A stretch of 64,000 nt of DNA from Octopus vulgaris. Lineage: Eukaryota. Location of the stretch: assembly GCA_951406725.2 (NCBI GenBank), contig OX597830.1, forward strand, positions 61,070,001 through 61,134,000. The letters run 5' to 3'. Positions within the stretch are counted from its first letter, which is position 1, and each line of letters begins with the position of its first letter. Both the position numbers and the translations under genes were made by a program. A model generated the notes under the pieces. That model saw nothing but the letters and a program-made list of their open reading frames with translations. It was not told the origin of the DNA and ran no database searches. This document shows positions 17,982 to 62,307 of the stretch, in pieces.

Positions 17982-18401
17982 ACATACATATATATACAGA
18001 CCGCCCGAACTCAAGATCTTTAGCGAGACACTGTATGCATGAATGTACCTGATGTGACCCAGACAGCAAAACTGATGCAACCCACCCATTAGGAACAACA
18101 GTAGGACGGGTCAAAACGATCTTCGTACAAAATGAAGATTAATACCAAATCTATCTTCTGTTTCATTAATCGATTATATATATACATAAATAGAAATGTT
18201 ATAATTTCTAAATCTCCCTAAAGGGAGAGATACAGCAGTTGTACTGGGTATTAATATTTATTGCCAAACAAATGTGGCAGTTCAGAGAAATAGGACGAAT
18301 ACTGCTGGACGATCGCCTCTAGCTAGCTATATGGCGCACGAACCTGCGTCCATAAATCTTCGAACAGGAGAGGTCATCAACTTCCCCCTGTGGCTTGGTA
18401 C

Positions 18402-18442
18402 CCACAGACCGGTTTCGGAGTAGTTTCCTCTTATCAATGTGG
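18402..18442 (-). ncRNA. Degenerate minimal type-I hammerhead ribozyme motif
   Basis: ccaca-TTGATAA-gagg aaacta ctcc-GAAA-ccgg-TC-tgtgg: 5-bp stem I, palindromic ACCGGU stem III, GUC site; core differs from CUGAUGA at 2 positions. Confidence 0.65.
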
Positions 18443-19023
18443 AGCAGCCGAGTCCAGCAGGGGTCACCTTTGACCTCTGTTCGAAGGCTTATATATTCAG
18501 CGAAACACATTTACCGATTTTCAAAAATAGAAATGTCATAATTTCTAAATCTCTCTAAAGGACAGATTACAACAGCAGTACTGGGTATTAATATTTATTG
18601 CCAAACTAACGTGGCAGTCCAGAGAAATAGGAAGTCAGCAAGAGGTTGATGACCTCCCCTGTTCGAAGGTTTATGGACGCAGGTTCGTGCGTCATATAGC
18701 TAGCAGCATTCGTCCTATTTCTCTGAACTGCCACATTTGTTTGGCAATAAATATTAATACCCAATACTGCTGCTGTATCTCTCTCTTTAGAGAGATTTAG
18801 AAATTATGACATTTCTATTTTGAAAATCAGTGAATGTGTTTCACTGAATATATATAAAGAAAACCTTAGAACAGAGGACATCGGCGACCCCTGCTGGACT
18901 AGGCTGCTCTACATTAACAAGTGGCAACTATCCCAAAACCGGTCTGTGAGTGCCAAGTCAGAAGGGGAAGTTGATGACCTCTCCTATTCGAAGGATTATG
19001 GACGTAGGTTCGTGTATCATATA

Positions 19024-28339: not shown

Positions 28340-28675
28340 TAACGAGAATAAGGGGAGAGAAATCACGTACAGCACGTACAGAAGAGGTGACAGCGGGCAG
28401 CCCTGACAGATCGAGCGTGCGATGTTAAACGGTTCCCATAGATGGCCATTTACTTTGACTACCGAGCAGATGTCGCTGTGCATTGCAGTGATCGAGCCAC
28501 TGAAAACGGGTCTGAAACCGGCCTCTTTAAGGTCGGCTTCCAGGTAGCGATGGTCGACCCTATCGAATGCTTTTGATTGATCCAAATTGATCAGGGCCCC
28601 ACAGAAGTCATCTTTCGTCCAAGCCCACACTATGATGTATCTAATCTTTATCTGACACATTGCGCTAGTCTCCAA
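28340..28675 (-). pseudogene. Tx1/L1-clade reverse transcriptase fragment
   Basis: GALINLDQSKAFDRVDHRYL...RSICQGCPLSPLLYVL (RT motifs). Confidence 0.85.
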
Positions 28676-28679
28676 TGAT

Positions 28680-29720
28680 GAACTGTAGCAGCTTCGTTGC
28701 AGTGTTGATTGTCATTGTATTATGAAACATTGTGTAAAGTGTTGCGTAGCTCTGTGTTGTGTAATGCTTTGTATAGTGGTCTTTGGTGGCTTTATGCGCT
28801 TTGATGAGGTTTACTGATGACTGGTGTAGCGCTGTGGGATGTAGTGCAGAGCAATCTAGTGTGGTTAAATGTTATTATTTAGTTGCAGATAAGATCTGTT
28901 GGAGCAGACCTCATTCCAATAGTCATCTTCATGTCCAATGTGTTCTTCACGTTTTTAAGTTAGTAGGTTGGATTTTGGGAATTTTGATGGCTATTTCTAG
29001 CAGGTCATACAACTGCGTAGGCTTCTCTCGTTGGCTTGTTTGGCTAAATGTAATACGATGAGGTGTAGTGTGGTGTTATGTAGCGTTATGTGGTGTGGTA
29101 TCCAGTGGTTCGTTTGTGGCTTCCACGAGACACCACATTGTTTATTACGGTGTGATGTGTCAATTCATAATGTAGTATGGTGCAGAGAGTGTAGTGTGGT
29201 GTGATTTGATGGAAAATCGTTTGACAATACGTAGTGTCATGAGGTGCAGAGTGATGTGCTTTGAATGAGTTTAATATAAAGGCAAAGCGAAGTCACGTGT
29301 GATGCTGTGAACGCTAACATGGCGTAGTGTTGTGTTTATTGTTTGTAAAAATGATGTGTTGTAAGAGTTGAAGATGTGGAGCAGTGAGGTGTTGTATCTA
29401 GTATCATATCTTCAACTGTTATGGAGTGGTGCATTATGGAGAAGAAGTAGCATTATGGTTAACTCTAATGTAAACTGTAACGTGGTGTAATATCATTGTA
29501 CTATGTGAGCTGGAGTATGGGCTGCTGTGTAGTGTGTGTTGAGTTTGGTATCGTTTTTGTCAGTTGTGTTGAGGTGAGTCATGATGTAGTGTAGAGTATT
29601 ATTCTGAGGCTTGATGTTGTGTACGTAGAATGGTGAAGTGTAATGCAGTGTAGCGTGATGTGAAGTGGTGTAAAGTAGTGGCTGTGGCGTAGACGGCTGT
29701 TTGATTAAATAGGTTTTGAT
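28680..29720. repeat. Highly degenerate pentanucleotide (TGTAG/TGTGG-like) array
   Basis: Recurrent tgtagtgtggtg / gtgtagtgtg words with strong G+T strand bias. Confidence 0.55.
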
Positions 29721-37573: not shown

Positions 37574-37638
<65 letters not shown>

Positions 37639-37673
37639 CAACAACAATAACAACAACAATAATAAATTATCAT

Positions 37674-40400
<2,727 letters not shown>

Positions 40401-53849: not shown

Positions 53850-54716
53850 ATGCATCTGGAGCTTTCACTGACCGGTGTTGGCGCAAATTTTCGTCTTACT
53901 CTGATGTTTATTGTATTTTTAAAACAGGCACAACGTTATAGCCCAGTGGAAGGCCGCTGCGAATGCAAGGGGGTCGTCTATAAGGCCAAAGTACGAGGAA
54001 ACCCTGGCAATACCACCGGTAGAATCAGTAGCAGCCATAGATATGAGAACAGAACTAGCAACACCGCCACCATCGTCACAGTTAACAATATTAGCAACAA
54101 TAACAATAACAGCACCAGCGACAGCATTAGCAGTTCCCTCGGCGGCATCGACAGGAGTACCAACAACAGCAACTTCAGCAGCAGAATTACCAACAGCTTC
54201 CCTAACGTCCACAGTAGCAGACCTGACAACCCCAAAAGCAGCAGCAACATGTCCAGTGCCCCCGCCAGCAATAACAGCAATAATGGCAGCAATGGAAACA
54301 GCTGCAGCGAAAGTGACACTCGCAGAAACACCGGCGGAAGCACAACTAATGACACCTCTAGCAGCAATGGCAACTCTTCCACCAATGACGAGGACCACAA
54401 TAACAACAACAGCACCTTCACCATAACCAGCAGTAGCGATACCATTACCGACGCCACCACCACCTCCAGCGACGCCAACGCTAGCAGTTCCCAGTTCAAA
54501 CAACAACGATGGCAGCTGCAGCAGCATCAACAACACCAACAGCAAATACACGCCCACGGAGAAACATTGGATGTTCCGGGAACTCTTTCAAGCAATATCT
54601 CTCCAACCTCAGGTCCTCCTTCTGAGTTTCGGAAAGGAGACTCCATCACTGGCCAGCCACGTCTGGCATCGAAAAGACGATGGGGTTCCATACTCAATTT
54701 CATAGAAAACCTTTGA
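53850..54716 (+). pseudogene. Penelope-like GIY-YIG endonuclease N-terminal remnant followed by long Ser/Asn-rich low-complexity sequence
   Basis: SPVEGRCECKGVVYKAKV fits the PLE pattern CPxxGxCxxxxVVYxAxV (first Cys TGC>AGC); no YIG half found. Confidence 0.55.
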
Positions 54717-55169
54717 GAACCCAGGCTCCTACATCAGCGGTACGAAGTGTTACAATTAATGCATAACTGAACGCGCAAGAATCCCAAAGGACTCACTCGA
54801 ACCAGGGAACATTCTTACCTCCAGAACGGAGATTTTCGGGCTATGTTTACATTCCAGGAGGTTCTTGCTAGCTTTTTGGAGTCCACAAAATGCGGCACAA
54901 CCGGAAGTCGATAGCCAATAGCAAAGGTAGATAATTCCCAGTTGTTACCTTTGAGTAATGAGGCATTTCCTTCTCCATATTCTCGAGAGGTCTTGGGCCA
55001 GCAGGTTTTTGGGATCTGACGATACGCCATAAAGCTAAACCTTATATGAATTAGAAACGTAAAGTAATCCCATAAACAAGCCTTCCCCATTTTTAATATA
55101 TACTGCTCTACTTCTTAGAATGTGCTGCTTCTTTCGGATTTATGCTTTTTACAAACGATATATATATAC

Positions 55170-57085: not shown

Positions 57086-57129
<44 letters not shown>

Positions 57130-57134
<5 letters not shown>

Positions 57135-57341
57135 ATACAATATGTTACATTACTCGGTAGTCAAGATAAAACTCTGAGTTTCAGATGCCGAAGTGGAAAT
57201 CCACAACACCATCTCTTCGGTTATCTGGCTATTTGAAAATAGCCAGATAACCGAAGAGATGGTGTTGTGGATTTCCACTTCGGCATCTGAAACTCAGAGT
57301 TTTATCTTGACTACCGAGTAATGTAACATATTGTATAGATA
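57130..57341. repeat. Perfect palindrome, 105-bp arms, 2-nt spacer
   Basis: 57130-57234 is the exact reverse complement of 57237-57341 (centre ggctattt-ga-aaatagcc). Confidence 0.95.
57245..57307 (+). ncRNA. Type-I hammerhead-like motif (core CCGAAGA, extended stem II); mirror copy at 57164-57226 (-)
   Basis: agataa-CCGAAGA-gatg..gtgg attt ccac..catc-t-GAAA-ctc a gag-TT-ttatct; 6-bp stem I. Confidence 0.72.
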
Positions 57342-57468
57342 AATTTCCTCTATTTACATAATATTGAGGTCTCTTTCTTTCTTTTGTTATCTTACCGTTT
57401 TATCAATATATATATATATATATATACATTGTGTATGTGTGAAGAAGAAGAAGAAGAAGAAGAAGAAG

Positions 57469-62142: not shown

Positions 62143-62194
62143 ACTAGGAGAGAAAAAAATGTGTGTAGTGGCTAACGATCTATCATGGCGACTC

Positions 62195-62258
<64 letters not shown>

Positions 62259-62307
62259 TCGCCATGATAGATCGTTAGCCACTACACACATTTTTTTCTC
62301 TCCTAGT
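62143..62307. repeat. Inverted repeat, 54-bp perfect arms around a (TA)n spacer
   Basis: 62143-62196 is the reverse complement of 62254-62307. Confidence 0.93.

Follow-up and report, generated by a model that had tools for sequence, protein, structure and literature searches.

How a perfect palindrome carrying a hammerhead-like fold on each strand came to lie within (TA)n is the question raised by this locus of Octopus vulgaris. Our examination of the window (the whole stretch of 64,000 nucleotides analysed) agreed with the initial annotation on the palindrome itself, which spans positions 57130–57341, with mismatch-free arms of 105 bp and the spacer GA (57235–57236). No other non-simple perfect palindrome with arms of at least 25 bp and a spacer of at most 10 nt occurs in the 64-kb window. 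The plus copy is indeed the longer one, by 65–67 bp, and runs to 57406–57408, its last letters blending into the TA run, with (TA)n at both ends. The palindrome is no chance event, yet it is not rare: a survey for the same inversion centre, which the initial annotation had proposed, revealed five loci with an identical centre and 237 centred within ~15 bp of the same point. The parent retroelement had been overlooked. It is very probable that the palindrome (Table 1) consists of two 5′-truncated 3′ends of a Hydra-clade Penelope-like retroelement (PLE), placed head to head in (TA)n, likely in one insertion by two separately primed cDNAs.

Table 1. Features of the palindrome and its borders (positions in the window; unit, coordinates of the parent element)
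Feature	Positions	Strand	Basis or remark
(TA)n target microsatellite, left part	57090..57131		sequence
Inverted tail-less arm, element 3′ end, unit 2518 back to 2414	57130..57234	-	palindrome scan, locus comparison (L034)
Native sequence of the inverted arm, running on to unit 2409 across the centre	57235-57239		
Junction, GA spacer and 3-nt microhomology	57235..57239		same centre at 4 other loci
Direct arm, element unit 2414-2518	57237..57341	+	palindrome scan, locus comparison
Tail of 65-67 bp, unit 2519-2585	57342..57408	+	on one arm only; predicted pairing with the stem I 5′ strand and core
(TA)n target microsatellite, right part	57407..57426		sequence
Predicted type I hammerhead, Hydra-clade form	57240..57313	+	sequence and fold comparison; cleavage predicted only
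Predicted type I hammerhead, mirror copy	57158..57231	-	mirror of the plus copy
Stem I	57240-57250 with 57302-57313	+	
Core CCGAAGA	57251-57257	+	C where the usual core has U
Stem II, long and interrupted, ~10 pairs	57258-57287	+	
Stem III ACUC-A-GAGU	57292-57300	+	predicted cut after 57301, GUU site

The genome (2.8 Gb, 227 contigs) was searched by sequence patterns, and a 28-mer from the hammerhead had 3,854 exact copies, many of which form minus/plus pairs at distances of 80 bp to 4 kb; a period of ~2,580 bp was seen for some. The parent unit is 2,579–2,585 bp long, occurs in tandem arrays and has a single ORF of 708 aa, which is intact in several copies. The encoded protein contains RWK (residue 38), DKT (residue 115), YKDD and YVG motifs, as well as a CxCX5C linker, a C-terminal GIY-YIG, CxxC and CxH (residues 558, 597, 661 and 692), and a pattern scan found no CCHH in it. 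Pfam returned a GIY-YIG match below the cut-off (E 0.013) and no RT match for this protein; its Atlas neighbours at 0.96–0.99 carried GIY-YIG, HTH_animal and, for some, RVT_1. In section 11 of PMC8557442, RWK, DKT, YKDD, CxCX5C, YVG, CxxC and CxH, together with the lack of CCHH, are given as the diagnostic set for the Hydra clade. Since the ORF matches this definition, the parent, a young element, is classified by its motifs as a Hydra-clade PLE. The short element (<3 kb) with a single ORF is a trait of that clade, and (TA)n is the target in the window, at the 3′ end of all 15 single arms inspected and at the five loci with the same centre. The insertion traits of EN+ PLEs, namely partial tandems, an inverted 5′-truncated copy and a tail at one end, were also found. 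A ~14-kb insertion (L036 and L037, G000:C1:57207500-57224500) is composed of head-to-head tandem arrays, some units of which have an intact 708-aa ORF.

Other repeated or mobile sequences were found in the window. A 3′ fragment of another Hydra-like element (54634–55160) has 40% identity to the C-terminal 85 aa, and its coding fragment is followed by a hammerhead-like motif with a CTGACGA core (~55017–55075) and then by (TA)n. An older 700-bp inverted repeat (18328–19023), with arms 80% identical, has hammerhead-like motifs recognized by eye. The window also contains a small MITE-like element (62143–62307), with near-perfect inverted ends of ~50 bp around a (TA)n centre, a frame of 870 codons on the plus strand (37574–40183) with RVT_1 and zf-RVT, corresponding to a LINE-type ORF that starts in an AAT repeat, and a second RT fragment on the minus strand (28340–28711). 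Two other identities were considered for the palindrome at 57130 and rejected: a MITE, because the arms derive from the 3′ end of a retroelement, vary in length and differ at their outer ends, and there are no DNA-transposon TIRs of uniform length, and a non-LTR retrozyme, because the tandem units found are the 2.58-kb coding element and not short hammerhead direct repeats.

In the coordinates of one natural unit (L036), the window reads from 2518 to 2409 inverted and then from 2414 to 2585 direct, with an overlap of 3 nt. The tail-bearing arm matches, at 100% identity, a copy of the element whose ORF is intact, and the earlier proposal of a very recent insertion is thus borne out. The initial annotation offered homogenisation as an alternative origin of the identical arms. 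In 16 long pairs, however, the divergence between arms is only 0–1.4%, so 105 identical bases are ordinary and homogenisation is unnecessary; the arms would be identical because they are recent copies of the same source.

The arrangement of the two arms follows a strict rule across the family. The loci behind the first 100 motif places amounted to 66, of which 46 had a head-to-head pair and 20 a single arm. Eleven pairs (L002, L020, L025, L037, L042, L044, L053, L071, L083, L091 and L100) were excluded as arrays, rearranged or old copies, leaving 35 clean pairs to be tested. The tail was found on exactly one arm in 34 of these 35 pairs, with one end at 2585 and the other ~65 bp earlier; the exception, L038, is an array, the outer ends of which still obey the rule. 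Among the 34 pairs, the tail-bearing arm reached further 5′ in 14, the tail-less arm in 18, and both were equal in 2. Short arms were paired with short arms (17) and long with long (15), and only 2 pairs were mixed (Fisher p 2e-7); in 4 of the 15 long pairs the arm ends were at most 35 nt apart (permutation p 0.002). For 15 of 16 long pairs, the two arms diverged less than the between-locus median, and for the remaining pair the value equalled it. Private variants are shared by the two arms of one insertion (nine in L073), and variants are also mirrored in L032; such sharing is compatible with a single RNA molecule as well as with two RNAs from the same source locus. A further set of 46 of the 237 short palindromes comprised 45 with one tail, and their junctions had a 6-nt self-complementary microhomology in 16 cases, the rest having mostly other overlaps or small insertions.

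The inverted 5′-truncated copy with the tail at one end is a published footprint of PLEs (PMC8557442, in the part consulted), and the portion of PMC11167929 available to us describes, in vitro and for a Poseidon element, the nicking and extension of both target strands and two RT start sites that bound the tail. We propose that the GIY-YIG endonuclease of the element would nick both strands of the TA run, and that the RT would begin at two fixed positions in the RNA of the element, unit 2585 (with the tail) and unit 2518 (without it). Both cDNAs would stop at a near-identical place just 5′ of the hammerhead, and host repair would then join the cDNA ends at the 3-nt microhomology. In this scheme we infer the synthesis of two cDNAs from DNA footprints and the joining step from the junctions. 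The 20 of 66 loci with a single arm argue against the two-cDNA model, as does the fact that the in vitro data come from Poseidon and not from Hydra.

The place at which the two arms are joined shows a sharp hotspot. A genome-wide scan with one pattern design (inverted anchor, gap of at most 30, anchor) identified 237 near-symmetric palindromes joined just before unit 2420, compared with 26 before 2455, 19 before 2479, 4 before 2320, 3 before 2331 and 0 before 2369 in the five control windows; the 2369 anchor is exact in 55 of the 82 arms that cover it. In an unselected sample of 92 arm starts, 28 fell in 2398–2426 and 51 in 2–2339. The commonest of 90 arm ends in short palindromes were 2417 (25), 2414 (21) and 2405 (10), whereas two at 2375 are artefacts of a deletion-bearing reference. 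The exact centre of the palindrome occurs at five loci on five contigs. Their flanks differ, two sequence subfamilies are represented, and the centre lies in either orientation with respect to the tail; it must therefore have arisen repeatedly. The layout of the insertion is already known, and the new contribution of this locus is the hotspot, which lies at the 5′ edge of the hammerhead. A narrow literature search found no mention of a junction hotspot in the parts of the PLE papers covered, and no match for twin priming with microhomology in Penelope.

The exact centre common to five loci might also be read as a sign that short palindromes are themselves mobile, as non-autonomous MITE- or SINE-like units moving via a hairpin RNA, so that the window would be a copy of an earlier palindrome. 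A sister palindrome (L109:946-1217, G000:C2:206324100-206326200) is in keeping with such movement: it has nine A-to-G changes, eight in the inverted arm and one in the direct arm, all on one strand and none after G, as if an edited hairpin RNA had been copied back. We nevertheless consider mobile palindromes improbable, given that the shared centre spans two subfamilies and both tail orientations, that junctions are highly varied among the 46 loci and that no nested longer palindromes were seen, although double priming on hairpin RNA would produce them. Furthermore, a genome-wide search with two forced-edit patterns (3 and 2 matches) revealed no second multiply edited copy. L109 is the only one of 216 arms with an ADAR-like pattern and, with no second case, general ADAR scarring of the element family was rejected. 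Two processes could account for the changes in L109: a hairpin RNA may have been edited before being copied back, or cDNA may have been deaminated in a hybrid. L109 lends indirect support to the idea of ADAR action, which the initial annotation had put forward for the palindrome, and a narrow literature search gave no match for ADAR hypermutation in genomic retrotransposon copies.

The initial annotation had spoken of a fold-back insertion, in which one cDNA would have folded back and copied itself. Perfect arms and variants mirrored in both of them, such as those of L032 and L073, would be expected from this process, and at L031 and L033 the orientation of the centre is that which the snap-back of a tail-bearing cDNA would give. 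However, a copy cannot exceed its template at both ends, and a single cDNA folding back therefore cannot have made the 18 pairs in which the tail-less arm reaches further 5′. In the window, the native upstream letters likewise belong to the tail-less arm, and 16 of the 46 short palindromes are loopless, with just the 6-nt self-complementary overlap. Fold-back is thus very unlikely, and the one-tail rule together with these 18 of 34 pairs fits two cDNAs better. An assembly fold-back artefact, for which the lack of a bridging contig at the centre among the listed sequencing contigs could be invoked, has a negligible probability, as the symmetry ends exactly where the element does, the tail of one arm has no mirror counterpart, the flanks are not alike, the tail rule also holds for kilobase-long arms, and the same centre is found on five contigs with different flanks. 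It is equally hard to credit a regulatory device under selection (a switch based on dsRNA or on the ribozyme and retained for ADAR or Dicer): although a read-through transcript would form the perfect hairpin, this is a young insertion, one of hundreds, and the ORFs scanned around it were only those of retroelements, with no host gene among them.

Returning to insertion by two separately primed cDNAs, our best guess for their shared stop, held with some reserve, is that both ran off the 5′ end of a short RNA of the pseudo-LTR starting near unit 2414; a template 5′ end at this position would account for both the symmetry of the junctions and the pairing of short arms with short arms. The only 5′ end seen is at unit 2316 (L037:3807), in the sense orientation and ~100 nt before the hammerhead, in one contig of run X14. 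The loose end of this contig is presumably a template-switching oligo, and our guess that X14 is an RNA run is backed by this oligo-like end. In the same run, a 2,169-nt contig extends from the tail into the ORF, and other contigs continue across 2414 without a break. The sole 5′ end at 2316 and these RNA-type contigs crossing 2414 speak against a transcript start at 2414, and in none of five arrays does the partial upstream copy begin there.

Several other causes of the hotspot were considered. Unit 2316 as the main template end was rejected because just four palindromes are found there, and ribozyme cleavage because the cut would be at unit 2479, with only 19 palindromes in that window. A cap-derived G at the junctions, seen by eye in a few centres, could not be distinguished from templated insertions and was also discarded. 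Stalling of the RT at U-tracts and a block of a 5′-nuclease at stem I are candidate alternatives to run-off. Both the four palindromes located near 2316 and the three with blunt joints at the predicted cut (see below) fit the idea that symmetric junctions mark RNA ends, the numbers being small. More speculatively still, the 237 short palindromes may result from two cDNAs primed on one pseudo-LTR RNA of ~170 nt and running off its 5′ end at the base of the hammerhead, with symmetric junctions marking the RNA 5′ ends (major 2414; minor 2316 and the cut at 2479) and some of the hairpins undergoing ADAR editing before their return to the germ-line DNA. If this were true, hundreds of events in which a Penelope-like RT was primed at twin sites in vivo would be recorded in the genome.

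The hammerhead-like fold was found on each arm as the initial annotation had depicted it, with the CCGAAGA core, a long stem II and stem III ACUC-A-GAGU. Three stems surround C3-G8, G5, A6, A9, G12, A13, A14 and a UH site, all of which are present, and one additional U precedes GAAA. Core position 4 is C instead of U in all but a few of 201 aligned arms, so we filed the motif as a variant and not as a canonical hammerhead. Rfam identified no hammerhead family in the palindrome, only miRNA-hairpin matches under the gathering score. A PDB sequence search yielded nothing useful. The 18 recurrent arm variants comprise 11 at unpaired positions, 3 in which a change on one side preserves the pair (27 locus counts), 3 that break a pair (9 locus counts) and 1 at the variable core position 7; none is a two-sided stem change, and the copies are too alike to be informative on covariation.

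In folding predictions, the hammerhead fold of the bare motif (-14.8) lies above the minimum (-18.9), and the probability of stem I decreases from 0.80 in the bare motif to 0.19 with the arm to 2518 and 0.005 with the tail. According to these predictions, tail bases pair with stem I and the core (57244–57257 in the window), and this alternative fold would keep the ribozyme off. Positions 2548–2577 of the tail are, in turn, predicted to pair with segments of unit 2389–2434 to either side of the hotspot. A transcript through the locus is predicted to fold, as the initial annotation had stated, as a perfect 105-bp hairpin (-189.9 kcal/mol). It had further suggested that this hairpin sequesters the ribozyme, but the hairpin is not needed to switch it off, as stem I is already predicted at such a low probability in a single arm with its tail. 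Stem III could pair with a second copy (-9.2, prediction), and PLE hammerheads are described as having low activity, as dimers, in the consulted parts of PMC4209133 and by Lunse et al. as cited in PMC6765202. At three of the 19 palindromes near stem III (G000:C2:44676842, C3:33467615 and C20:25694337), both arms begin exactly at the predicted cut and are joined without overlap; these blunt, microhomology-free joints are a hint of a possible trace of cleavage in vivo. The mirrored hammerheads of the window would be passengers of the pseudo-LTR, for which self-cleavage is a prediction from sequence.

The locus is therefore a real, young and ordinary insertion, a new family member with a known layout. 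In itself it is ordinary retroelement debris, and its value is statistical: more than 200 sister copies joined at nearly the same spot would help to test how such elements copy themselves, and the mechanism of inverted PLE insertions is called open in the parts of PMC8557442 and PMC11167929 consulted. Copies with intact ORFs, a strict one-tail rule, correlated arm lengths and a sharp hotspot permit exact predictions for the RNA ends and an in vitro assay with a Hydra-clade protein. Hundreds of perfect 100-bp palindromes would also represent a standing source of hairpin RNA in a genome with ADAR-like changes fixed in its DNA.

The following comparisons with known systems draw on the portions of the cited papers available to us. 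The animal non-LTR retrozymes (bioRxiv 10.64898/2026.07.22.740005) resemble the palindrome in being non-coding and in having a type I hammerhead from PLE pseudo-LTRs, but they are direct tandem repeats, whereas the window has an inverted pair cut from an autonomous element. In Drosophila virilis Penelope (Schostak et al. 2008, PMC2377424), an internal promoter in the pseudo-LTR starts transcription ~120 nt before hammerhead helix I, a start that the single 5′ end of our family, ~100 nt before helix I, resembles. An intron ending at helix I, as in D. virilis, was not supported for our family, both genomic matches keeping the putative donor; no cleanly spliced copy was found among these two matches, and no joint in the RNA-type contigs. 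The minimal hammerheads of metazoan PLEs (Cervera and de la Pena 2014, PMC4209133) are also of type I, with a short palindromic stem III and expected low-activity dimers, and opposite-strand hammerhead pairs 100–700 bp apart were already noted there in Schistosoma. They have U at core position 4, where the window motif has C, and their extra nucleotide lies between 9 and 10.1 instead of 3′ of stem II.

Poseidon PAc of Anolis (Frangieh et al. 2024, PMC11167929) shares with the scheme proposed for our family the nicking and extension of both strands, an interval between two RT starts that equals the tail, and an AT-rich target. It differs in belonging to another clade and in that its data are in vitro, the joining of its two cDNAs not being shown in that work. 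The Hydra-clade PLEs (Craig et al. 2021, PMC8557442) are also <3 kb, with one ORF, RWK, DKT, CxCX5C, no CCHH and a (TA)n target. Their hammerheads similarly lie close to the 3′ end, GAAA being preceded by U or C and stem III consisting of 4 bp and a 1-nt loop. All the Hydra cores listed in the consulted part of that paper begin with CTGA, whereas the window element has CCGA and a longer stem II, and its tail is 65–67 bp long in contrast to the 30–40 bp stated for PLEs. The hammerhead of Hydra-1_Obim, the listed octopus member, is unlike that of the window element, which is thus likely to be a separate family by this sequence difference. Penelope-3_HM has the same stem III as the window element (ACTC-A-GAGT-T), and Penelope-13_HM is listed with an inverted 5′-truncated copy and a hammerhead on each strand, as in the window.
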